Assembly (NCBI GenBank): GCA_035084275.1 | Contig: CM068747.1 | Span: 23,312,001 to 23,376,000, forward strand | DNA: 64,000 bases | From: Hydrolagus colliei | Taxonomy: Eukaryota | Direction: 5' to 3' | In this document: one piece after another, positions 1,017 through 62,420 of the stretch | Numbering within the stretch: position 1 is the stretch's first letter | How the letters are laid out: every line of letters begins with the position of its first letter | Position numbers and translations under genes: made by a program | Notes under the pieces: generated by a model | The model's input: the letters and a program-made list of their open reading frames with translations, nothing else | What the model was told of the DNA's origin: nothing | Database searches by the model: none

Positions 1017-1100
1017 TGCCGGAGGTCCCTAAAAAGCCGATGGCTGAAGAAGTCAAACCTGTTACTGTTCTTAGAAGGAAGGTGTCTCCTCCAATTGAAG
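1017..1100 (+). CDS. ttn: titin PEVK exon (84 nt) VPEVPKKPMAEEVKPVTVLRRKVSPPIE
   Basis: tttaaag|...GAAG|gtacaa, phase 1-1. Confidence 0.92.
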
Positions 1101-1326
1101 GTACAAAAACAATGGGAGACTTTATAATATTTTCAGTGTGGCTGCACGTACACACGATTAGATAGAAAACCGTGTCTGTTTCATTGTCTTCTCACAAACT
1201 CTGCCCAGACTCAGTTTTTGGTTCTTCGTCTGGCGTCAGTTGGTCTTGTCTGTGACGTTAGTGTGTTCAATGTTCTGTGTATTTTCTTGAATAAATTATT
1301 TCCTAAAATGCTAATATTCTTAAAAG

Positions 1327-1410
1327 TGCCAGAGGTCCCTAAGAAGACAATAGTTGAAGAAATGAAACCTGTTACTGTTTCAAGAAGGAAGGAGATTCCT
1401 CCGACTGAAG
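1327..1410 (+). CDS. ttn: titin PEVK exon (84 nt) VPEVPKKTIVEEMKPVTVSRRKEIPPTE
   Basis: ttaaaag|...GAAG|gtatag, phase 1-1. Confidence 0.92.
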
Positions 1411-2547
1411 GTATAGCACTAGAGAGAGAGATTTTATGACATCTTCATTCATACTCAGTTTGGCTGTTTGTTTCCATCACTTGACTGAAATTTGTGTCTG
1501 CATTTTTCAGCCATTTCTCAATCACTGTCCAGAAATTGATTCTGGTTCTTCTTGTTGTAGTGGAATTAATCATCACCATATTCGGTCATCCATGTTCTAT
1601 TCGGTTACATTGTTGTGATACCTGTGTGTTTGTGTTTTACATCTGTGAATAACTTTCATGCTGTCATATGCAGTAACTGCAACACATGAGAAACATTTAG
1701 CATATTTCAGTTAAGTCCTGTCACATTGGTGCAATACATTTCTTGGCCAATTTATTGTGAGTGATTTTCTGAACCCCTTTAAATTGGTGATGTTATCACC
1801 AGTGGGGTTGGTTACCTTACTCCATATGAACCAGAAAATTTACAGATTGATATAGTTTCAGCTTAGAGCAGGATTGGACCCTTGACCTTCACAAATCTCA
1901 GTGTGGGACATCCTCCTGACGTGAAAGGCGCTATTATACTGAGCATAATTTTGTTATTGTTAGTGACTTTGCCAGTGGTTGCAGTTGGCTCACTGCATTA
2001 TTCTTTTAATATAATATTAAACAAACAATAAATTACGTTTATAAAGTCCCTTTCAATTCAGATGGATGCCCCAAGGCGGTGGACAGTCAAGGGTTTGCAT
2101 CCCAGCTAGGGGATGGAGTCGCCAGGGATGGAGAGCAAGGGCATTGGGTGGGTGGCCAAAGGCATAGTGAAAGAGAAATGTCTTGAGTCGGGGTTTGAAG
2201 GAGGCAAATGAAGTCGCGAGATGGAGCGATATGGGGATGGAATTGCAAGTGTAGAGGCAGAAACGATGAAAGCCCAACCGCCAGTTGTGTAAAGTAGAGT
2301 AATTTGTAGTCACATTTCTAACTTATCAAGGCAAAAAGTTCCTGTTAATTTCACAACCTGTCCAGGATAATGACATTTTATGTTGACAAGTGATTTTACT
2401 TTTGAATCACTCAAGCATTTCATGTACCATCAATATGTCATCTTGAGTACGTTTCCCTGTGATGTTTCTTGTTATCTTGGTTTACGTGCCTTCAATATTA
2501 TGTGTTTCTTATGCAAATCTTTTCTTAAACCACACTATTCTTTAAAG

Positions 2548-2631
2548 TGCCGGAGGTTCCTAAGAAGCCGATGGCTGAAGAAGTCAAACCTGTTCCTGAA
2601 CTTAGACGGAAGGTGGCTCCTCCAACTGAAG
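2548..2631 (+). CDS. ttn: titin PEVK exon (84 nt) VPEVPKKPMAEEVKPVPELRRKVAPPTE
   Basis: AG/GT flanks, phase 1-1. Confidence 0.92.
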
Positions 2632-2859
2632 GTACAAGAACATTGAGAGACTTTATAACATTTTCAGTGTGGCTGCACATATGCATCATTAGATTGAAAA
2701 CTGTGTTTGTGTTTCACTGTTGTCTCACAAACTGTGTCCAGATTCACTTTCTGGTTGTGCGTCTAGCGTCAGTTGGTCTTGTCTGTGACGTTAGTGTGTT
2801 CAACGTTCTTTGTATTTTCTTGAGTGAAACATTTCCTAAAATGCTAATATTCTTAAAAG

Positions 2860-2943
2860 TGCCGGAGGTCCCTAAGAAGAGAATAGTTGACGAAATGAAA
2901 CCTGTTACTGTTCCAAGAAGGAAGGAGATTCCTCCGACTGAAG
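2860..2943 (+). CDS. ttn: titin PEVK exon (84 nt) VPEVPKKRIVDEMKPVTVPRRKEIPPTE
   Basis: AG/GT flanks, phase 1-1. Confidence 0.92.
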
Positions 2944-4002
2944 GTATAGCACTAGAGAGAGATTTTATGACATCTTCATTCATACTCAGTTTGGCTGTCT
3001 GTTTCCATCCTTTGAACAAAATTTGTGTTTACATTTTTCAGCCATTTCTCAATCACTGTCCAGATATTGATTCTGGTTCTTCGTGTTGTGGTGGAATTAA
3101 TCATCACCATATTCAGTCATCCATGTTCTATTCTGTTACAGTGTTGTGATACCTGCGTGTTTGTGTTTTACGTCTGTGTGTATCTTTCATGCTGTCATAT
3201 GTAGCAACTACAACACACAGGGGCAATGTTTAGTATATTTCAGTTAACTACTGAAATAGTAGTGGTGCAACACATTTCTTGGTCAATTTATTGAGGATGA
3301 TTTTCCGAACCCCTTTAAATTGGTGACTTTATCGCCAATGGGGTTGGTCACTTAACTTTTCTTTAACAGGGAAATTTATACATTGATGCGGTGTCACCTG
3401 GGAGCAGGATTGGACCCATAACATTCATAAATCTCATTTGTTTGTAGTTGGCTCACTGCAATTATTCTTTTAATGTAATATTAAACAAACAACAAATTAC
3501 ATTTATAAAGTGCCTTTCGATTCGGATGGACACCCCAAGGCCCTGGACAGTTAAGCGATTGCATCCCAGCTGGGGGATGGAGTCAACAGGAGTGCAGGGC
3601 AAGGGGATTGGGTGGGTGGCCAAAGTCACAGTCAAAGAGTCGGGTCTTGAAGGAGGCAAACACGGGGCTGAGGAAGAGGAATTTGGGGATAGAATTCCAA
3701 AACCTAGGGTCAGAAATTCTGAGGGCCCGACCGCCAGTGGTATAAATTAGAGTAATTTGTAGTCACATTTCTAACTTATCAACGCAAAAAGTCCCTGTTA
3801 ATTTCAGCACCTGTCCAGGGTAACAACATTTTATGTTGACAAGTGATTTTACTTTTGAATGCACTCATGCATTTCATGTACCATCAATATGTCGTCTTGA
3901 GTACGTTTCCCTGTGATGTTTCTTGTTATCTTGGTTTACGTGACTTCATTGTTATGTGTATTCTTATGTGAATCTTTTCTTAAACCACACTATTCTTTAA
4001 AG

Positions 4003-4086
4003 TGCCGGAGGTTCCTAAGAAGCCGATGGCTGAAGAAGTCAAACCTGTTCCTGAACTTAGACGGAAAGTGTCTCCTCCAACTGAAG
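4003..4086 (+). CDS. ttn: titin PEVK exon (84 nt) VPEVPKKPMAEEVKPVPELRRKVSPPTE
   Basis: AG/GT flanks, phase 1-1. Confidence 0.92.
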
Positions 4087-4314
4087 GTACAAGAACATTG
4101 AGAGACTTTATAACATTTTCAGTGTGGCTGCACATACGCATCATTAGATTGAAAACTGTGTTTATGTTTCACTGTTGTCTCACAAACTGTGTCCAGATTC
4201 ACTTTCTGGTTGTGCGTCTAGCATCAGTTGGTCTTGTCTGTGATGTTAGTGTGTTCAACGTTCTTTGTATTTTCTTGAGTGAATCATTTCCTAAAATGCT
4301 AATATTCTTAAAAG

Positions 4315-4398
4315 TCCCAGAGGTCCCTAAGAAGACAATAGTTGACGAAATGAAACCTGTTACTGTTCCAAGAAGGAAGGAGATTCCTCCAACTGAAG
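4315..4398 (+). CDS. ttn: titin PEVK exon (84 nt) VPEVPKKTIVDEMKPVTVPRRKEIPPTE
   Basis: AG/GT flanks, phase 1-1. Confidence 0.92.
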
Positions 4399-5525
4399 GT
4401 ATAGCACCAGAGAGAGATTTTATGACATCTTCATTCATACTCAGTTTGGCTGTCTGTTTCCATCCTTTGAACAAAATTTGTGTTTACATTTTTCAGCCAT
4501 TTCTCAATCACTGTCCAGATATTGATTCTGGTTCTTCTTGTTGTGGTGGAATTAATCATCACCATATTCAGTCATCCATGTTCTATTCTGTTACAGTGTT
4601 GTGATACCTGCGTGTTTGTGTTTTACATCTGTGAATGTCCTTCACAACGACAACAAAACAAAACTACATTTATAGAGTAGCTTTCTCATCCAAGGCGATG
4701 GCATATCTAGTAACCGCAACATACAGTGGAAATGTTTAGTATATTTCAGTTAACTACTGTCACATTGGTGCAACACATTTCTTGGTCAATTTATTGTGAG
4801 TGAATTTTTTAACCCCTTTAAATTGGTGACGTTATCACCAATAGTTTTAGCTTAGAGCAGGATTGGACTCTTAACATTCACAAATCTCAGTCGGGGATGT
4901 CCTCCTACACAAGCATAATTTTGTTTTTGTTATTGTTGGGGATTTTGCCAGTGATTGCAGTCGGCTCACTCCACTATTCTTTTAATATAATATTAAACAA
5001 ACAATAAATGACATCTATAAAGTCCCTTTCCATTCAGGTGGATGCCCCAAAGCATTAGACAGGCAAGGGTTTGCAACCCAGCTGGGGAATATAATCAACA
5101 GGGGGTGGAGGGCAAGTGCATTGGGTGGGTGGCCAAATGCATAGTGAAAGAGAAAGGTCTTGAGTTGGGTCTTGAAGTAGGCAAACACGGGGCTGAGGTA
5201 GAGGGATTTGGGAATGGAATTCCAAGGGTAGAGGCAGAAACGCTGATGGCCGGACTGCCAGTTGTGTAAAGTAGAGTAATTTGTAGTCACATTTCTAACT
5301 TATCAAGGCAAAAAGTCTCTGTTAATTCCAGGACTTGTCCAGGGTAACAACACTTTATTTTGACAAGTGATTTTACCTTTGATGCACTCATGCATTTCAT
5401 GTACCATCAATATGTCGTCTTGAGTACGTTTCCCTGTGATGTTTCTTGTTATCTTGGTTTACGTGACTTCAATGTTATGTGTATTCTTATGCAAATCTTT
5501 TCTTAAACAATGCTATTCTTTAAAG

Positions 5526-5609
5526 TGCCGGAGGTTCCTAAAAAGCCGATGGCTGAAGAAGTCAAACCAGTAACTGTTCTTAGAAGGAAGGTGTCTCCTC
5601 CAATTGAAG
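5526..5609 (+). CDS. ttn: titin PEVK exon (84 nt) VPEVPKKPMAEEVKPVTVLRRKVSPPIE
   Basis: AG/GT flanks, phase 1-1. Confidence 0.92.
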
Positions 5610-5835
5610 GTACAAAAACAATGGGAGACTTTATAACATTTTCAGCGTGGCTGCACGTACACATCATTAGATAGAAAACCATGTCTGTTTCATTGTCACC
5701 TCACAAACTCTGTCCAGCTTCAGCTTTTGGTTCTTCGTCTGGCATTAGTTGGTCTTGTCTGTGACGTTAGTGTGTTCAATGTTCTGTGTATTTTCTTGAA
5801 TAAATCATTTCCTAAAATGCTAATATTCTTAAAAG

Positions 5836-5919
5836 TGCCAGAGGTCCCTAAGAAGACAGTAGTTGAAGAAATGAAACCTGTTACTGTTCCAAGAAGGAAG
5901 GAGATTCCTCCGACTGAAG
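5836..5919 (+). CDS. ttn: titin PEVK exon (84 nt) VPEVPKKTVVEEMKPVTVPRRKEIPPTE
   Basis: AG/GT flanks, phase 1-1. Confidence 0.92.
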
Positions 5920-6492
5920 GTACAGCACGAGAGAGAGATTTTATGACATCTTCATTCATACTCAGTTTGGCTGTCTGTTCCATCATTTGAATGAAAATTG
6001 TGTCTGCATTTTTCAGCCATTTCTCAATCACTGTCCAGATATTGATTCTGGTTGTTCGTGTTGTGGTGGAATTAATCATCACCATATTCAGTCATCCATG
6101 TTCTTTTCTGTTACAGTGTTGTGATACCTATGGTGTTTGTGTTTTACATCTGTGTCTTTCATGCTGTCATATGCAGTAATTGCAACATACAGGGGCGAAG
6201 TTTAGTATATTTCAGTTAACTACTGTGACATTGATGCAACACATTTCTTGGTTAATTTACTGAGGGTGATTTTCTGAACCCCTTTAAATTGGTGACTTTA
6301 TCACCAATGGGGTTGGTTACTTTACTCTATTTCAACCAGGAAATTGACAGATTGATATGATGTCAGGTTAGAGCAGGATTGGACCCTTAACATCCATAAA
6401 TCTCAATTGGTGACTGCCAGTAATTGCAGTTGGCTCACTGCATTATTTGTTTAATGTAATATTAAATATTAAATAATGTAATATTAAATATT

Positions 6493-6693
6493 CATAGATT
6501 CATAGATTCATAGATTCATAGATTCATAGATTCATAGAATTTTACAGCACAAAAGGAGGCCATTCGGCCCATCTAGTCTGTGCCGGCTCTTTGAAAAGAG
6601 CGATTCAATCCCACTGCCCTGCCCGCTCCCCATAGCCTAATAGACCTGTTCTCCCTAAATAAAGATCTAATTCCCTTTTAAAAGTTGTTATTG
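6493..6693 (-). mobile_element. CR1 LINE 3' end with octamer tail
   Basis: (CATAGATT)n tail; minus frame ITTFKRELDLYLGRTGLLGYGERAGQWD*, typical CR1 ORF2 C-terminus. Confidence 0.8.
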
Positions 6694-6983
6694 AGTCGGG
6701 TCTCAATGGAGGCAAGGGAGGGAGCAATGCGGAGGGATTCCGATATGGAATTTCAAAAGCATAGCAGCAGAAACAATGAAGGACCATATAAAGTGGAGTA
6801 ATTTATAGTCACATTTCTACGTTATCAAGGCCAAAAGTCCCTGTTACTTCCAGAGCCTGTCCAGGGTAACAGCACTTTATGTTGATAAGTTTTCCTGTGA
6901 TGTTTCTTGTTATCTTGGTTTACGTGACTTCAATGTTATGTGTATTATGTGAATCTTTTCTGAAACAACGCTATTCTTTAAAG

Positions 6984-7067
6984 TGCCGGAGGTTCCTAAG
7001 AAGCCGATGGCTGAAGAAGTCAAACCTGTTACTGTTCTTAGAAGGAAGGTGTCTCCTCCAACTGAAG
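6984..7067 (+). CDS. ttn: titin PEVK exon (84 nt) VPEVPKKPMAEEVKPVTVLRRKVSPPTE
   Basis: AG/GT flanks, phase 1-1. Confidence 0.92.
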
Positions 7068-7293
7068 GTACAAAAACAATGGGAGACTTTATAATATTTT
7101 CAGTGTGGCTGCACGTACACATCATTAGTTGGAAAACCGTGTCTGTTTCATTGTCGTCTCACAAACTCTGCCCAGACTCAGCTTCTGGTTCTTCGTCTGG
7201 CGTCAGTTGGTCTTGTCTGTGACGTTAGTGTGTTCAATGTTCTGTGTATTTTCTTGAATGAATCATTTCCTAAAATGCTAATATTCTTAAAAG

Positions 7294-7377
7294 TTCTGGA
7301 GGCTCCTACGAAGACAGTAGTTGAAGAAGTGAAACCTATTACTGTTCGAAGAAGGAAGGAATCTCCTCCGACTGAAG
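7294..7377 (+). CDS. ttn: titin PEVK exon (84 nt) VLEAPTKTVVEEVKPITVRRRKESPPTE
   Basis: AG/GT flanks, phase 1-1. Confidence 0.9.
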
Positions 7378-13560: not shown

Positions 13561-13777
13561 CCATATTTTTTTCTTTTGAACATCACGACACATTATTTTT
13601 TAAATAAACTTTTACTTTGATGTATTATTCATAGTTTTGGTTCAATACAGTGTGTTGTCTTCAGTCAGTGTTTGCTCTGTCATGTGTGTCATTTTACTGT
13701 GGGATGTTATTTGTACGTCCCCTGTTATATATGTTTTCTTGAGTGAATCTATGCTTACACGATAATATTCTTTAAAG

Positions 13778-13861
13778 TGCCGGAGGTTCCTAAGAAACCA
13801 GTGGCTGAAGAAGTCAAACCTGTCACTGTTCCAAGAAGAAAAGAGATTTCTCCTGCTGAAG
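13778..13861 (+). CDS. ttn: titin PEVK exon (84 nt) VPEVPKKPVAEEVKPVTVPRRKEISPAE
   Basis: AG/GT flanks, phase 1-1. Confidence 0.92.
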
Positions 13862-14114
13862 GTACACAACTAAGAGAGCGATTTCATAAAATCTTCATTC
13901 TTAATCAGTGTGGCTACAAGTTCCCATCAGTAAAATAAAAACGGTGTCCATACTTCTCTTAAACCTCTGTCCAGACCCTGCTTATGGTTCTTCTTCTGAT
14001 CTTGTTTGCTGCTGGTTTTGTCTGTGAAGTTTAAATGTTACTACTTTATGTGTTGAGCTTTCCATATATTTTTTGGAGTGAATCGTTCCCTAAACCGTTA
14101 ATATTCTTTTAAAG

Positions 14115-14198
14115 TGCCGGAGGTTCCTAAGAAACTAATGGCTGAAGAAGTCAAACCTGTCCCTGTTCCAAGAAGAAAAGAGATTTCTCCTGCTGAAG
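14115..14198 (+). CDS. ttn: titin PEVK exon (84 nt) VPEVPKKLMAEEVKPVPVPRRKEISPAE
   Basis: AG/GT flanks, phase 1-1. Confidence 0.92.
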
Positions 14199-14450
14199 GT
14201 ACACAACTAAGAGAGAGATTTCATAAAATCTTCATCCTTAATCAGTGTGGCTACAAGTTCCCATCATTAAAATAAAAACGGTGTCTATACTTCTCTTAAA
14301 CCTCTGTCCAGACCCCGCTTATGGTTCTTCTTCTGATCTTGTTTGCTGCTGGTTTTGTCTGTGAAGTTTAAATGTTTCTACTTTATGTGTTGAGCTTTCC
14401 ATATATTTTTTGGAGTGAATCGTTCCCTAAACCATTAATATTCTTTAAAG

Positions 14451-14534
14451 TGCTGGAGGTTCCTAAGAAACCAATGGCTGAAGAAGTCAAACCTGTTACT
14501 GTTCCAAAAAGAAAGGCGTCTCCACCAACTGCAG
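14451..14534 (+). CDS. ttn: titin PEVK exon (84 nt) VLEVPKKPMAEEVKPVTVPKRKASPPTA
   Basis: AG/GT flanks, phase 1-1. Confidence 0.92.
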
Positions 14535-15486
14535 GTACAAAACTAAGAGAGATTTTAGAAAACCTTGCTCATTACCGAGTACCCATCTCTAGAAATGAAA
14601 ACTGTCTCCCCATTTCTTCGTTCATTCATCTCTCAACTTTTTGTTCCGGTGGAATTAAACACCATTTTTTTAAATTCACTTGTTCTTTATTGTGTGTCAA
14701 TCTTTATTCATCAAAGTTGTGTTCTGTTGCAGTGTTGTGATGTCCCATTTTGTGTTCATATCCGTCTGTGTCTTTCATATTCTCATTAAATAGCAGTTGT
14801 AACTTTATATTTTCAAGAGGAAATTGTAATAGGACTACAGGCTTGCCAAGAATTCAACTGAAATGCATTCTAGGACACCAAACGTTCCCACCTGGCCTTA
14901 GAATTCCTCCATTTAAGAAGCATTTTAAAGTGTGCAACATTTGGCAAATTGGTGAATTTAGTCTTAACTTTGAAGTTGATTTTCTTTAGCTCTTAAAACA
15001 ACTTACACAAAAATTGTTTCGAAATAGAGGAGGCATTCAAGAACATGCTAAAATGCTGCATAAATAAAGTAAACTGAGACCCAGATTGAATTTTCACCTG
15101 CTAACTGCCAAGCTGATTAAATCTGTAAATAAGAATTCAACCCCAAACCAATGGACATTATGATATGTTTTACCAAGTTTTATAAGCCGACCTGCTTTGA
15201 AGTTTGGATATTTGGGTAAATAATTATTATTTGTGACGCTAAACCATTTCAAATAATTCTTGCATCTCATGGATTTACACCCTTTGTTGTATCAATGTTG
15301 AAGGGTGCCTATTAATTCCAGCTGTCATCCAAAATCCTTGCTATTCGCTCCCAAGACTGCTTACTAAATGTGTCATCTTGAGGGAGTTTTAACTGCTATG
15401 TATGTGTGGATCATTACTTTTATGTCTACAAAGTTCTTTGTATTATCTTGAGTGGATCTTTTCTTAAACAATAATATTCTTTAAAG

Positions 15487-19811: not shown

Positions 19812-19983
19812 GTACAACTACACACTCGGATTGATCTAAATCTCGTATTGTGCCATCTTTGCCAAGTTTCTACATTCATAGTCTTTGCATTAATCATAGC
19901 CAGAAATGATCTTCTGGTGCTTCTTTCATTCTTGCCATTCATATCACTATCTTTCCCTGTGTTTGTTTGTTGTCATGTGCAGC

Positions 19984-20652
19984 TCTGCCTTCCCTCACCT
20001 CCGCAACGTTGCCCGACTCCGCCACAATCTCACCCCTCAGGCCGCTGAAACCCTCATTCATGCCTTCATCACAACCGGGCTTGACTACGCCAATGCCCTG
20101 CTTGTCGGCCTTCCCAATTCCTCCCTCCATAAGCTGCAACTCATCCAGAACTCAGCGGCCCGTGTCCTCTATCGCTCCAAGCTTGGTGACCCCATCTCCC
20201 CCATTCTCGCCTGACTCCGTCGGCTCCCCATCACCCAGAGGATTCCATTCAAGATCCTGCTGTTCACCTTCAAAGCCCTCCATGGCCTCACCCCACCCTA
20301 CCTTTGTAACCTTCTAACCCCTTAATAACCTGCCCGCTTCCTCTGCTCAGCAGCCTCCGGCCTGCTCCATGTCCCCCGACCCACCCGCCCCACCATCTAC
20401 CGGCGAGGCTTCAGCCACTCTGCCCCCAACCTATGGAATTCCAGAGTCGCTCCACTTCACCTCTTCCTAGCCTCCTTCAAGTCCAGCCTCAAGACCCTCC
20501 TTTTCGACGGTGCCATCGGTCACCTAAATCCTCTCCTTTCGTTCCACCTTCCCCGATCCTGACCCCAGCTCGCGTTTGAAACATTGATTGTCCAGTGCTT
20601 TGGGACGTCCTCCCAATGTGAAAGGCGCTATACAAATGTAATTTTGTTGTTG
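19984..20652 (+). mobile_element. L2-clade LINE 3' fragment
   Basis: AETLIHAFITTGLDYANALLVGLP..LQLIQNSAARVL; (GTT)n tail. Confidence 0.9.
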
Positions 20653-25753: not shown

Positions 25754-26038
25754 AACCTGAGGTTACAAAACAACCTGCTTATGAAGAAGAAAGAGAAACT
25801 TATGAAGTTATAGAAGCTTATGAAGAATATAAGGAAGAGTATGAGGTCACAGAAGCAGAGGAAGAATATAAGGAAGAATATGAAATAGTAGAGCCATATG
25901 ATGATGAAGAGACAGAAGTATATGATGAAGAGGCAGAACAGTTTGAAGAATATACAGAAGCCTATGTTGAAGAGCCTGAAGAAGATGAAGAAGATACAAA
26001 AGTATATGAAGAAAAAGAAATAACCATGCGACCTAAAG
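25754..26038 (+). CDS. ttn: titin PEVK polyE-type exon (285 nt) EPEVTKQPAYEEERETYEV...EITMRPK
   Basis: gttgaag|...AAAG|gtacat, phase 1-1, E/Y-rich open frame. Confidence 0.88.
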
Positions 26039-27228: not shown

Positions 27229-27315
27229 AAGTCCCTGAAGATGACGAGAAGATTTTAGATCAAGAAGCCGATTACGACATACCTTCAGAAAGCGAGGAAG
27301 TGATTCTGGAGAAAG
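27229..27315 (+). CDS. ttn: titin PEVK acidic exon (87/84 nt, NAGNAG) EVPEDDEKILDQEADYDIPSESEEVILEK
   Basis: tag|aag tandem acceptor; AAAG|gtatca donor. Confidence 0.82.
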
Positions 27316-31411: not shown

Positions 31412-31471
31412 AAGTACCTGGTATTACAGCTCCTATAACAACTCCAATCGGAGGCAAGAGACCTGTGAAAG
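31412..31471 (+). CDS. ttn: titin PEVK exon (60 nt) EVPGITAPITTPIGGKRPVK
   Basis: ctttttcag|...AAAG|gtacag; resembles human PTPIAAPVTVPVVGKK (recalled). Confidence 0.85.
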
Positions 31472-31902
31472 GTACAGTCTATCAAACGCAACTTGAAGCT
31501 TTGTTTAATAAATGCAAAACATCCAAATGTGAGGTGTTGGTTTCCTGATTGTCAATATTTGGGCCAGTCGAATATGAAATGCTGCATAATTTTAAACTTT
31601 AGTCCACAGGTATATAAATGTTGTGTATTAGTAATGTATCAAACTGTCCTTCCAGTCCGTTGAAGAATCCGTTGCAATTTATGTAAATTACGTCTTGTGA
31701 TTCTTCCTGTTTATATGTCTTTAGGAGTATTTGGTTGTCTATCAAAACGTTCCTCAGTCTGTTTCAACCTAGGGAACCTAAATGTAGTCCACAAAGTACG
31801 ATACTGTTTGATTTTATGTTGTTCTGCTGTTAAACGTTTCTTTTATGGAATTGATGTTGTCCTTGTTAATCAATCACTAAATGTAATATAAAACCTTTGT
31901 AG

Positions 31903-34392
31903 CTACAGAAAAAACAGAGGCACCTTTGAAATTAAAACCAGCAGCCAAAGTTCCCAAGGAAGTAGTGGAAGACTCGTTAGAAATCCCAAATCTGAAGAAA
32001 ACTAGTAAGATTTCTAAGGAAGACGAAGGTGAACAACGCATTATACGCAAGAAGTTTGATGCATCACCTAAAGAAGAGGAAAAACAATTAGAATTAAAAC
32101 GTAGGATACATGTTAAAAGCCCCAAGGAAACGGAACCTGACCGGGATGTTTTAGCATTAAAGAAAGATGGAATAATTGCAAAGGAGGAAGAAGAACATAG
32201 ACAGTCAGTACTAAAAATAGTTAGCGATGTCCCTAAAATAGAAGATAAGGAAAAGAGAACAACACTCAAAAAACCAGAGAAGATCACCACCGAAAGAGAG
32301 ATCGTAGACAAACCATTGATGAAGAGGTTTGGTAGAGTTCCTAAAGAAGAAAAGGAACCAGAAAGTGTAGTACTTAAAACACCGAGTAGGGTCCCCAAAC
32401 AAGAGAGTGTGCCAGATAAGGGATTAGAGAAGAAACCCAAAGAAGACATCATGAAAGAAAAAGAGTTAGCAGCAAAGACACCTAGTAGAGTCCCCAAGGG
32501 CATAGAAGACCGAGGAAAGCAATTAGTACTCGAAAGGGATGATGAAGTTCCTGTAGAAAAAGGACAAGAGACAGTGACAGAACCTGAAAAAGTTCCCGTG
32601 GAGGTAGGTGAAAGGGAAAAGCCATCAGTGAAATGGGCTGAAGTTCCTATGCCAGAGAAAGCAAAACAAACTGTCATTCCAACGAAGAAGCCGAGCAAAA
32701 GCCCCAAGGAGCAAGAGAAAGAAGAAAAACATTTGATACAGAAAAAAGTTCATACAATTCCCAAAGCCGAGGAGGAGAAAATGGAACATCCGAGTCTCAA
32801 GAGAGTTGACTTTCCCAAAGTTGTTCAAGATGAACCCAGGATTAAACCATTGGTTGAAGAAGAGAAACCTAAAGGGATAGACATTCATCCAATGGAAAGG
32901 ATGCCAAGGGAGACCATTTTAGAAAAGCCTGCAGATAAACCTCTTCCAGGACAAGTTACCCCTGAAGAGGCTGATGTTCCTCCTAAACGAGTACCTGAGA
33001 AGAAAGTGGTGGCTCCCAAAGAGACGCCTCCCGAGTCTCGTTTAAAAATTGGTAAAGGGAAAGTGCCAAGATTGGAAGAGGACAAGGAAAATGTCGAGTT
33101 AAAACCGATTCCCTCAAAAAGAAAGCCGTCGGAAGAAAAAGAGCCCCAGAAACCTCCTAAAGTACCCGAAAAGCAAATAACTATACCAAGGGAATTCATT
33201 ACGTCAAAGGAAAAACCTAATGCCTCAAGCTCTCCCATAGGTAAGGGCAAAGTGCCAGTCTCAGAAGAACAGAAAGAACCCGTGCAACTTGAAAAAGTCC
33301 CTACACCAGAAACTATATTAGAGGAAAAGGAACCACAGAAAATAGCGGACAAGGTGCCAATATCCGACGAGACGCCTGGTGAGAAGCAGCTTCTCATTGG
33401 CAAAGGCAAAGTGCCAGTTTCAGAAATAGGGAAAGTTGCCGCAGAGCTCAAGAAAGTGCCCTCAAAAGAGGTTGTGTCAGATGAAAAAGAACCAAGGAAA
33501 GTACCTGGAAGGAAAGGCATATCCCCTAAGGCATCCCCAAAAGAGAAACCAGATTTTGTGGACACTACAATTAGCAAAGGAAAAGTGCCCATATCAGAAA
33601 TACCAAAGGAAGCTGTTGAGGTGAAGAAAGTTCCCTCAAAGGAAGTTGTGGCAGAGGAAAAAGAACCAAAGAAAATACTGGGGAGAAAAGTGATTTCCCC
33701 CAAAGAGAAACCAGATGATGTAGATATTAGAATTAGCAAAGGGAAAGTGCCCCTATCAGAAACACCCACAGAAAATGTAGAGGTGAAGAAAGTTCCCTCA
33801 AAGGAAATCATGGCAGATGGAAAAGAACCAAAGAAAATACCTGGAAGGAAAGTCATATCCCCTAAAGTATCCCCTATAGAGAGACCAGATGCCGTGGACA
33901 GTAAAATTAGCAAAGGGAAAGTGCCCGTTTCAGAAATACTAAAGGAAACTGTAGAGATGAGGAAAGTTCCCTCAAAGGAAATAGTGGCTGATGAAAAAGA
34001 ACCAAAGAAAATACCTGGAAGAAAAGTTATTTCCCCTAAAGAGAAACCCGAGGCTGTAGATCGTAAAATTAGGAAAGAGAAAGTGCCCGTTTCAAGCAAA
34101 GAAAGCGAAACAGTAGACCTGGACAAGACCCCTTCGGAAGACATTTCACAGGGAGAATCTGAAGAAATGCATGAAGCAGCTGGTGAAGAAGCTAATGAAG
34201 GCAGGTATGAAGAGCCAGAAGAAGAGACTGAGGAGATATCATCCGAAGAATTACCATACACAGAGGATTGGGAATGGGAAGGAACCGAAGGAGAGGAAGA
34301 ATATGGGTCATCTGTGGATTGGGAATATGAAGATGATGAAGAATTAGTTGAGGGTGTAGTTCAGACTCCTGGACAGTCTTCCAAGCGACGAG
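31903..34392 (+). CDS. ttn: titin giant PEVK-like exon (2490 nt, 830 aa) with KGKVP repeats and an acidic tail
   Basis: ctttgtag| acceptor (alternative CAG at 31908), CGAG|gtgaga donor, phase 1-1, no stops, P/E/V/K-rich. Confidence 0.88.
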
Positions 34393-34989
34393 GTGAGATG
34401 GCTGCAGATCTACACTCATCATATGCTTGGAAAACTAGTCAGTGTTCCTCAGTGTTGTGTATGTGTGTCTGTCTGTGTCAAATGTCTTTCTCTTGGCAGT
34501 TTGTCTGCTGGTGTGTGCATGAAGCACTAGGGACGTCAACCGTGATACAAAATTAATGTCCATTATTTGTGCTTTGTCTGTGTGGTTTTATCTTTTCTGT
34601 CTGAAAAGATCATTTGTTTTTTATTTGCTATTAACAGAACTATGGGTGAATTATTCAGTAATTTTCACATCCCTTTCATGGTTAGGGAATTCTGTGAAAA
34701 TTAAAAAAAAATGTCTGGTATCACATTTTTCTCATCTTTAAGCTAACAGATATTCATTTTAATTTCTTCTAGCATATCGAGTAAGCATTTAATTAATACA
34801 TTAAGATGGTCCCAGTATTCTTTTTAAAATATTTTTTGTATCTACATAAATATTTTTGCTTTATTGAAGAACATTTTACTCGTCTCAATTTTCAGTCGTG
34901 AGTTACTAGTCGTTTAACAGTTCACTTTTCATGCGGTAATACAGTAATCCCTTCTAAAAAAACAATGAAACAGTAATAATGATAATTTG

Positions 34990-35217: not shown

Positions 35218-35268
35218 ATGCTAAGGCACCAGGTGAAGAAGCCGGCAGAGGAAGAGGTTCTCCAAGAG
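35218..35268 (+). CDS. ttn: titin PEVK exon (51 nt) DAKAPGEEAGRGRGSPR
   Basis: actacag|...AGAG|gtgaga; resembles human EAKAPKEEAAKPK (recalled). Confidence 0.82.
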
Positions 35269-36286: not shown

Positions 36287-36682
36287 CGAGAAAAACGCCA
36301 TCGCCTGGAGACGCAGACAAGAAGGGAATTAAACCAGGTGGTGGCAGGCCGCCGGGAGAAGAGGCACCTTTTGCAGGGTTCCAGCTTAAAGCAGTCCCAC
36401 TGAAATTTGTCAAAGAGCTAAAAGATATCGTGTTGGAGGAGGCCGAGTCTATAGGTTCTTCTGCTGTCTTTGAATGCCAAATCTCGCCTTCGACAGCGCA
36501 GACATTCTGGATGAAGGACGGAAGCACTGTGAGAGAGAGCCCCAAGCACAAATTTACATCTGATGGCAAAGATAGGAAGCTGCATATCATTGATGTGCAA
36601 CTTTCAGATACCGGTGAATATACCTGTATAGGCCGTCTCGGGAAGCAAGAAAAGATGTCCACAGCCAAACTAATTGTCCAAG
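36287..36682 (+). CDS. ttn: titin end of PEVK + Ig I84
   Basis: RKTPSP...FQLKAVPLKFVKELKDIVL...STAKLIVQ; 396 nt, phase 1-1. Confidence 0.95.
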
Positions 36683-43244: not shown

Positions 43245-43312
43245 GCAAGTGGCAGCAGTGCTTCCATTGCGCTGTATAAAATAATGGAATATTTGTAGCA
43301 CAAGAGATTGTT

Positions 43313-44008
43313 CGGCCCATTGCGTCTCAGGTATGCTTTGCTTCCTCCCCCAAACTGTCCTTCCTCCCCCACATCTGGTCCCTCACCAGCACCGCCTTCT
43401 TCCACCTCCGACGGATCGCCCGTCTCCGGCAGTACCTCAACCCAAAAGCCGCTTAAACCCTGGTCCACACTTTCGTCATCTCACAGCTGGACTATTCAAA
43501 TGCCCTCCTCGCCGGTCTCCCCTCCACCAGAATCCATAAAATCCAACTCAACCAAAACTCTGCCGCCCATGTACTCACCCGCACCAAGCTTCGCTCCCCC
43601 GTTACCGCAGTCCTTGCCAGATTTCACTGGCTCCCTATCCCCGAGAGGATCAACTTCAAGATCCTGACCCTTGTTTTCAAATGCCCCCACTCCTCTGCAC
43701 CCTCCTACCTCTCTGACCTCCTCTCTCCTCAAACCAGCTCCCGTTGCCTTCGCTCCACTGGGTCTGGCCTCCTCCATGTCCACGAATCCTTCGCTCCACC
43801 CTCGGCGACCGGGGCTTCATCCACTATGCCCCGACGCTCTGGAATTCCCCTCCTCACTACCTTCATCTTGCCCCCTCTTTTCTCATTTTCAGGTCCCAGC
43901 TGAAGACCTTTCTCTTCGACTGCGCCTTCAGCTCCGAGATCCGCTATTGTGAAGTGCCCTCCACACCGTCTGGTGTGGAGGGCACTATATAAATCGAAGT
44001 TGTTGTTG
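43313..44008 (+). mobile_element. L2-clade LINE 3' fragment
   Basis: Homologous to the 19984 copy; (GTT)n tail. Confidence 0.88.
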
Positions 44009-54221: not shown

Positions 54222-55452
54222 TAGGGAACGGCGATATATCGGTATATCGCTAAAGCCCGATATGAGTTTCATATCGATATGCCGATATAGACATTTAAAA
54301 AATACCGATATATCGAAAAACGATATATCGAGGTAAAAAATCGGGATGCGAGCAAAATCAACTACAAGACCCAGAATGCTCATCTCTATACACAATGCAC
54401 AGACCGAGGTGCAAAGCCGCCATCTTGTATTCATAGTCCTCGAATACAATATACAGGTATGCAAGGGGTGGGGGGAGAGAGACGGCTGTGGGTGGGGGGG
54501 GTGAGGGGGAGAGAGACGGCTGGGGGGGGGGTGAGGGGGAGACAGACGGCTGGGGGGAGGGGGAGACAGACGGCTGGGAGGGGAGAGGGGGAGAGAGACG
54601 GCTGGGGGGGGAGGAGTGGGGGAGAGAGACGGCTGGGGGGAGGGGTAGAGACGGCTTGGGGGGGAGGGAGAGAGAGACAGCGGGGGGGGGGGAGGAGAGG
54701 GGGAGAGAGACGGCTGGGGGGAGGGGGAGAGAGACGGCTGGGGGGGGAGGGAGAGAGAGACGGCGGGGGGGCGAGGAGAGGGTGAGAGAGACGGCTGGGG
54801 GGGGAGGGAGAGAGAGACGGTGGGGGGGGGGAGGAGGAGAGGGGGAGAGAGACGGCTGTGGGGAGGGGGAGAGAGACGGCTGGGGGGTGAGGGAGAGAGA
54901 GACGGCGGGGGGGGCGAGGAGAGGGTGAGAGAGACGGCTGGGGGGGGAGGGAGAGAGAGACGGTGGGGGGGGGGGAGGAGGAGAGGGGGAGAGAGACGGC
55001 TGGGGGGAGGGGGAGAGAGACGGCTGGTGGGGGGAGGGAGAGAGAGGCGGTGGGGGGCAGGGAGGGAGAAAGAGACGGCTGGGGGGGGGGTTGGGGAGAG
55101 AGACAACGGGGGTGGGGGGTGCGAGAGAGGGACGGCGGGGGGGTGGGGGGGAGAGACGGGGTGGATGTGATAATATACAGATAGATAGAGATGGGTGGGG
55201 ATGTGAGAGAGGAGAGAGGGACAGAGACATAGAGAGACACAGACAGAAAAACACAGAGATGGAGAGAGTGAGAGACACAGAGAGAGAAAGATATTTACCT
55301 CCTGAGAAGATAGGCCCCGAATGCGCGCGCACCCGGAATGCGCGCGCGCATGCGCAGTACGAAAAAACGGAAAATATCGGTATTTCGGTATATCTCGATA
55401 TGAGCCAACCGATATATCCATATCCGGAAAATTCCCATATCGCCGTTCCCTA
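54222..55452. mobile_element. non-autonomous hAT element containing a G-rich minisatellite
   Basis: Perfect 16-bp TIR TAGGGAACGGCGATAT/ATATCGCCGTTCCCTA; 8-bp TSD ACTTCTAC/ACGTCTAC (1 mismatch); subterminal CCGATAT/ATATCG repeats. Confidence 0.9.
54465..55165 (+). repeat. G-rich minisatellite, unit ~GGGGGAGAGAGACGGCTGGGGGG
   Basis: Many copies of GAGAGACGG(CT) separated by G runs. Confidence 0.95.
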
Positions 55453-61672: not shown

Positions 61673-61723
61673 GTATGGGTGATTGTTTTGTCAAATATCA
61701 TATATGAATTTAAGAAAATTTCT

Positions 61724-62420
61724 CTCTCGTCCTCTCTGCTCCACCATCGGTGGCTGTGCCTTCAGCCATAGCGTCTCAAAACTCGGGAACTCTCGCGCTC
61801 AATCCTACCACTGTGCCCCCTTCCTCCCCACTTTCAAATCCCAGTTAATCCCTTTTACCCATATCCCTTCCTTTTTGATTGTGCTAGTCCTCACATGTAA
61901 AGCCCTCCACAACCTTGCCCCACCCTACATCCGTGACCTCCTATCCCCTTACCAACCTGCCCGTCCCCTCCACTCAACAGACTCTGGCCTGCTTCATGTC
62001 CCCTGACCCACCCACCCAACCATTCCTGGGCGAGCCTTCAGTCATTCTGCTCCCAACCTCTGGAACTCCATCCCAAAGTTCCTCTGCCTCGCACCCTCCC
62101 TGGCCTCCTTCAAGTCTCGCCTCAAGACTCTCCTCTTCGATGGTCTCATTGGCAACTCCTCCTCCCCACCCCCTCCCCCCCACCACCCCCCACCACTAGC
62201 TCGAGTCAGAAGCAGTAACCTGTCCAGTGCCTTGGGACATCCTCCTGACGTGAAAGGTACTGTACAAATGTAATTTTGTTGTTGTTGTTGTTGTTGCTTA
62301 CTTTCATCTCCACTCTCCCTCTCCCCCTGGCTCGGAGTCAAACTTAGCCACTATTAAGCGCTCTGGGTCACTGACCCACGCATAGGGCGCTATATGAATG
62401 CAAATTGTGTTGTTGTTGTT
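61724..62420 (+). mobile_element. nested L2-clade LINE 3' fragments
   Basis: VLTCKALHNLAPPYIRDLLSPYQPARPLHSTDSGLLHVP; two (GTT)n tails. Confidence 0.85.

Follow-up and report, generated by a model that had tools for sequence, protein, structure and literature searches.

An intact 830-codon exon in the distal PEVK segment of a likely chimaera titin gene, skipped in a relative's transcript and probably an optional cassette

The stiffness of vertebrate titin is thought to be tuned stepwise through its numerous PEVK micro-exons, the final ones of the segment being included in every case, and the question raised by the present locus is what a single exon of 2,490 nt is doing among them: whether it is a genuine part of the gene, whether it is spliced into the transcript, and what it would do to the elastic segment. 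In the 64,000-nt stretch of DNA analysed here (the window), which is part of a single titin gene, this exon, referred to below as the giant exon, lies two exons before the junction of the PEVK segment with the distal Ig domains. The exons concerned are:

31412-31471, + strand: upstream PEVK exon, 60 nt, phase 1-1, joined straight to 35218 in a relative (run X1, below)
31903-34392, + strand: giant exon, with a product of about 94 kDa, predicted to be disordered
35218-35268, + strand: downstream exon, 51 nt, phase 1-1
36287-36682, + strand: exon with the PEVK end and the first distal Ig domain, by which the gene is identified as titin and the giant exon is placed within it

The best PDB matches of the last of these exons are to titin, its Pfam match is to I-set (1.6e-13), and at E<=1e-10 the genome contains a single match to it. 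The exons downstream encode tandem Ig, then Fn3 domains, and the 120 kb upstream (frames read by eye) hold Novex-like and N2B-like large exons among Z-disc, proximal Ig, middle Ig and N2A regions, the order across the locus being that of titin: Z-disc, proximal Ig, Novex/N2B, middle Ig, N2A, PEVK, distal Ig, Fn3. The connectin primers for Callorhinchus milii, the elephant shark, with sequences taken from the supplement of PMC12241362, match here in order in all 11 cases tested, at 184 of 198 letters, and because of this the gene is likely, judging by sequence, to be that of a chimaera related to the elephant shark, whose connectin is likely the nearest described orthologous gene. One of these primers, PEVK-F, maps at -16696, which together with the distal Ig exon at 36287 places the giant exon after the Ig domains of N2A and before the first of the distal ones.

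Several further observations concern the wider locus. At the Novex-3 position, about 70.0-63.0 kb upstream (L007-L008), two adjacent frames of 1,167 and 1,188 codons stand in different phases, and in this gene the Novex-3-like region may consist of two exons; a 1,012-codon N2B-like frame is found further on. The start of the first distal Ig exon (36287-36350) carries Gly at the position of a Ser in the corresponding mammalian distal-PEVK peptide, which we take to be a PKC phosphosite and which looks absent here. Broken LINE-like fragments (43299-43992, 19900-20317 and 61683-62273; translations read by eye) lie in titin introns, and a degenerate G-rich tandem array of about 700 nt with GGGGGAGAGAGACGGCT-like units (54465-55159) lies in an A/I-junction intron.

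A first-pass annotation had described the giant exon as a 2,490-nt symmetric exon in phase 1-1 between exons of 60 and 51 nt, a description with which the sequence, the frame and the splice joints of a related animal agree. Its 829 whole codons contain zero stops and are enclosed by an open frame on the + strand at 31887-34556, the acceptor being ...CCTTTGTAG/CT (TAG/C) and the donor GAG/GTGAGA. Stops number 50 and 67 in the two remaining + frames, and in 2,000 base shuffles the longest stop-free run had a mean of 87 codons and a maximum of 185. Two sets of contigs were compared with the window, namely X1, one RNA-like run (RNA by guess) from a relative about 90% alike, and X2, a DNA-like run. 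The spliced joints of X1 fall exactly on the boundaries of the 60-nt and 51-nt flanking exons, whose peptides read as the first-pass annotation gave them, and a single X2 contig (30953-35013) spans the giant exon with 14 differences and 2 gap letters (about 99.6% identity). Because one contig covers the exon, its sequence is not mis-assembled, and an assembly artefact was rejected.

The distal PEVK had also been called otherwise micro-exonic, and it is: a heuristic exon scan, in which the limits of a few exons are approximate and others may have been missed, returned 52 other candidates with a median of 84 nt, the largest being 285-324 nt, and about 1,530 codons in total, the giant exon amounting to about one third of the total possible PEVK. 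The earlier equation of its length with that of about 30 PPAK exons is right as arithmetic (2,490/84 = 29.6). The exon is like the vertebrate titin PEVK (human exons 112-226, of PPAK and E-rich types) in its gene, its segment, its phase 1-1 symmetry and, probably, its charged, predicted disordered product with much Pro, Glu, Val and Lys, as well as in belonging to a segment whose length is set by alternative splicing; it differs from the mammalian PEVK in being a single exon of 2,490 nt, whereas the text of PMC6469411 gives a mean of 76-93 nt, and in its PEVK content of 55% against about 70%.

The micro-exons show features of their own. At 1017-7377 of the window a two-exon PPAK cassette with its introns has been recently duplicated in tandem into five copies with a period of about 1,455-1,530 nt, whose near-identical exons are reminiscent of the human PEVK triplication, and at 13763-14552 a 337-nt exon-plus-intron unit is present in 2.3 copies at 94% identity. 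The largest other PEVK exon is a 285-nt Glu/Tyr-rich one (25754-26038) with an internal repeat of 21/42 nt, entered by the X1 joint 25493>25754, and an 87-nt acidic candidate exon (27229-27315) is bypassed by the X1 joint 26880>28832. PPAK-type acceptors (L002:3000 to window 26880) nearly all end in AAG (TTCTTTAAAG or TTCTTTGAAG) after short pyrimidine tracts, unlike the last constitutive-looking PEVK exons and the giant exon, which use CAG or TAG acceptors.

The human protein was earlier held to be without such an insert, a claim that the published cDNA coordinates bear out as far as they extend. According to PMC5874998 (Table 2), the stretch of the human metatranscript from c.39484 in exon 208 to c.40876, where exon 224 ends, comprises 1,393 nt, exon 224 has 90 nt and exons 225-243 together have 3,770 nt; judged by these coordinates, exons 208-243 include none of at least 2.4 kb, and since they leave no room for 2.5 kb, human TTN as tabulated there is without the giant exon. 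The 60- and 51-nt flanks would correspond to human exons 224 and 225, an orthology by position only, since the human flanking peptides named in the first-pass annotation were not found in the literature searched. The same tabulated source gives an inclusion of 95-100% for human exons 218-226 in the skeletal muscle of adults, and it is within this distal block (219-225/220-226), included at that rate in humans, that the giant exon sits.

Overlooked in the first pass were the exon's own repeat architecture and its mere 55% PEVK. Three regions can be told apart along the peptide, two repeats and a tail:

31905-33029, + strand: degenerate 18-19-aa repeat (aa 1-375), an acidic run, a hydrophobic residue, a K/R pair, x3-4 and V-P-K-E
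33030-34163, + strand: long repeat (aa 376-753), six whole units (63, 53, 58, 54, 58 and 54 aa) and a partial seventh, with a KGKVP anchor
34125-34391, + strand: acidic tail (aa 741-829), net charge -0.33 per residue, with three of the four Trp of the exon

The peptide contains 17.4% E, 17.0% K, 11.5% P and 9.7% V, and its P+E+V+K of 55.5% exceeds both ends of the range of published working cut-offs (40-54%) but is lower than the roughly 70% of the human PEVK segment and than the content of most micro-exons of the same gene; the charged fraction is 0.42-0.45. In aa 1-375 the net charge is about zero, autocorrelation reaches a z of 4.1 at lag 18 and 3.5 at lag 36, and 14 of the 17 intervals between occurrences of a hand-made motif measure 17-20 aa, while the units of the long repeat differ in length by whole codons only. 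Pfam searches of the exon returned no family, WH2 included, at E<=1 and no Ig domain, and no PDB chain matched the peptide. AlphaFold run on the single sequence, which is weak evidence, gave a mean pLDDT of 33 and no fold; the product is predicted to be disordered, and the low pLDDT fits disorder without proving it.

The giant exon is not a PPAK array: its periods of 18-19 and 53-63 aa all fall within a single exon, whereas PPAK units have 26-28 aa and take up one exon of about 84 nt each. The PPAK family (PF02818) was not matched by it, whereas both of two control micro-exons gave weak PPAK matches (E 0.03-0.04). By eye, half of the long unit resembles the PPAK exons of the same gene, and on a profile of 25 of these it scores a borderline -0.9, compared with 50-70 for true members and with a mean of -14.8 (sd 5.0, maximum 3.1) for 150 shuffles. 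An origin by fusion of PPAK micro-exons was not accepted, in view of the different periods and of this borderline profile score. Derivation from another gene is likewise unsupported, since neither repeat type has a second copy elsewhere in its own genome. A protein-collection search found no match at near, longer (to 4,145 aa) or shorter lengths (about 8,000 candidates scored each), nor did phmmer against 1.84 billion representatives, but little weight attaches to these negative results, because titins of full length are beyond the length limits or collapse under one representative. Database annotations of teleost titins contain a Gly-Lys-Gly-Lys-type repeat similar to that of the giant exon, which is a lead only.

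Whether the exon is used turns on the splice joints and on the signals around it:

31870-31902, + strand: giant-exon acceptor region, pyrimidine fraction 0.47, with a branch-point-like CACTAAAT just upstream
33221-33246, + strand: internal AG/GTAAG site, CTCTCCCATAG/GTAAGG, possible donor 33240 or acceptor 33241, in phase
34393-34592, + strand: strong donor (GTGAGA) and TG-rich intron start with one TGCATG, candidate muscle splicing-factor sites

The X1 joints run 26880>28832, 28891>31412, 31471>35218 and 35268>36287, and because of this chain the X1 transcript is seen to skip the giant exon; the skip joint is of the GT..AG type and is absent from X2, as are all eight GT..AG joints among the 15 of 1,262 joints listed for X1. 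The first pass had suggested comparing the joints 31471>31903 and 31471>35218 to tell inclusion from skipping; the second was seen, so that skipping stands, and neither the first nor any other inclusion joint occurs among the same listed joints. The X1 contigs over the giant exon cross both of its splice sites unspliced into both introns and may come from pre-mRNA or DNA. Contig depths in X1 are about 8,000 for the skip, 116-192 for the contigs covering the exon and 78-310 for introns, figures from contigs, which cannot show a level.

In the elephant shark, the PEVK clones described in the text of PMC12241362 encode 372-424 aa when from heart and 634-774 aa when from body muscle, and the primers used to clone them map at -16696 and 36665 here, on either side of the giant exon. 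Since 372-774 aa is less than 830 aa, these isoforms cannot hold the whole giant exon, though plasmid and PCR cloning favours short inserts, which limits what they can say. The elephant shark itself likely has the exon, of which the text and supplement of PMC12241362 make no mention, though its figures 1 and 2d may draw it. No description of such an exon was found either in the passages of titin literature searched, among them passages of PMC7912658, PMC9575118, PMC11033294, PMC9635730, PMC12854356 and PMC4040393; it may already stand in database models or in descriptions of fish titins, such as those of zebrafish titin structure (Seeley 2007, Steffen 2007, Hanashima 2017).

The pyrimidine fraction of the giant-exon acceptor is tied for the lowest among the 41 exons compared, and the 200 nt after the exon hold nine TGTG, the highest count of the 41 (mean 2.9 and maximum 7 in the 40 others). 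This TG-rich intron stretch with its TGCATG we take to hold putative RBM24/CELF and RBFOX sites, which presumably promote inclusion in muscle. A further signal lies inside the exon, where the site at 33240/33241 could split it into cassettes of 446 and 384 codons (half exons of 1,338 nt or 1,152 nt) used singly or together. The site is the sole AG/GTRAG inside the exon, is in phase, follows a pyrimidine run, lies near the border between the two repeat types and scores as the strongest internal donor, at 6.0 against 5.4 for 34392. Its letters, however, follow from the codons for Ile-Gly-Lys in repeat unit 2, other units using different codons, no joint at 33240/33241 appears among the X1 joints listed (15 of 1,262), and an X1 contig passes straight through it, so that we consider use of the exon in halves unlikely.

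It could also be argued that the giant exon was once used, is now practically never spliced in and is slowly decaying, as might be read from skipping being the only outcome observed in X1, from elephant-shark clones too short for the whole exon, and from a substitution density that is intron-like. The last of these is seen in X1, where two contigs (31443-33590 and 33984-34962) cover the region and differ from it by about 10% substitution: the exon-rich contig has 10.2 substitutions per 100, similar to the 11.0 of intron-rich pieces, because of which amino-acid constraint is judged weak. Against such decay stands the frame of 829 codons, intact despite this divergence. With the X1 substitution spectrum, neutral drift to 5% divergence would be expected to produce 5.6 stops (P = 0.004 for none), and drift to 3% gives P = 0.036 for none. 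Indels are depleted as well, the giant-exon contigs of X1 showing 33 gap letters against about 119 predicted from six intron-rich pieces (38 per kb), where their intron parts alone explain about 38 and where gap letters are not the same as indel events; among the 12 of 145 rows listed, the exon has one indel, a 9-nt in-frame insertion at 33590. Finally, the recent repeat duplications are in whole codons, and synonymous changes are in excess among them. By the Nei-Gojobori method, dN/dS lies at 0.25-0.26 among long-repeat units 4-6 and at 0.27-0.58 in pairs with unit 3, although a neutral simulation matched for ts/tv gives P<0.05 in only three of six (non-independent) unit pairs, and 15 of the 31 variable columns among units fall at third positions (P=0.059). 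We infer that the frame of the giant exon is kept by selection while its amino acids are loosely constrained, as expected for a disordered spring, and a decaying relic appears improbable, about as much so as use in halves.

Least probable of the readings weighed is that the giant exon is the terminal exon of a shortened isoform like Novex-3, or that it serves chiefly to bind filaments and not as a spring: read-through beyond the donor does stop after 54 codons, with an ATTAAA at 34700, the exon has seven LKKT/LKKV/LKRV-like tetramers against 1.7 in shuffles (a post hoc pattern, four of them in copies of one repeat), and the human PEVK binds and nucleates actin according to the text of PMC12295887, but a strong in-phase donor closes the coding-like sequence, what follows it on read-through is intron-like, with TG repeats and much Cys, and the Pfam search above, which included WH2, speaks against a filament binder.

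What we hold to be probable is that the window contains an intact, in-frame 830-codon distal-PEVK exon of a likely chimaera titin, skipped in the transcript of one relative. It is likely a cassette of optional use, through which some muscle type or stage would gain a spring of about 290 nm, predicted to be disordered. On the best reading, by analogy, it is a conserved and usually skipped cassette whose inclusion would extend the spring in one large step, in the way of exon 32 of Drosophila sls. The latter, as described in the text of PMC12063666, encodes 1,700 PEVK-rich residues in one exon, is absent from flight muscle and present in leg and larval muscle, and when deleted shortens the protein by 0.5 um. 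The giant exon is like Sallimus exons 31 and 32 in encoding, within one exon, what would be a very large PEVK-rich spring, and those of Sallimus are splice-switched by muscle type; it differs in its length of 830 as against 1,700 aa, and the analogy is one of mechanism, no sequence relation being expected. It is also like the titin N2B unique sequence and Novex exons, which are large, single, optional I-band exons of long unique sequence and which the same gene has upstream, but these carry Ig domains and precede the middle Ig segment, whereas the giant exon is Ig-free, repetitive and located at the end of the PEVK.

In the mechanism suggested by this optional-cassette reading, the giant exon would normally be skipped on account of its weak acceptor, and its inclusion would be switched on by splicing factors of muscle that act on the TG-rich/TGCATG intron behind the strong donor. 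Inclusion would add about 94 kDa and about 290 nm of contour length (at 0.35 nm per residue, as used in the text of PMC12063666), and a PEVK with the elephant-shark lengths of 372-774 aa would grow at a single stroke to some 1,200-1,600 aa. The predicted effect of inclusion or skipping on spring length would translate into a several-fold lower passive force at a given stretch: in a toy worm-like chain with those elephant-shark lengths and an assumed persistence length of 1 nm, force at fixed extension falls from 5.0 to 1.1 pN for a PEVK of 424 aa and from 5.0 to 1.7 pN for one of 774 aa.

The giant exon is real, probably functional and new in comparison with the known PEVK micro-exons, with its inclusion predicted. 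A bolder version, offered tentatively and itself rather doubtful, would have early-branching jawed vertebrates keep an insect-style one-exon titin spring switch, in which a repeat segment of about 94 kDa within an otherwise constitutive distal PEVK, so far undescribed, is turned on in a specific muscle or stage, is ancestral, was lost toward mammals and possibly grips thin filaments via spaced basic motifs. In length the exon roughly equals the entire PEVK cloned from elephant-shark skeletal muscle, and it may have escaped PCR cloning, which is biased to short inserts. If it is included in some muscle type, the elastic segment there would be roughly doubled, and cartilaginous fish would gain a two-state, insect-like switch of muscle compliance.
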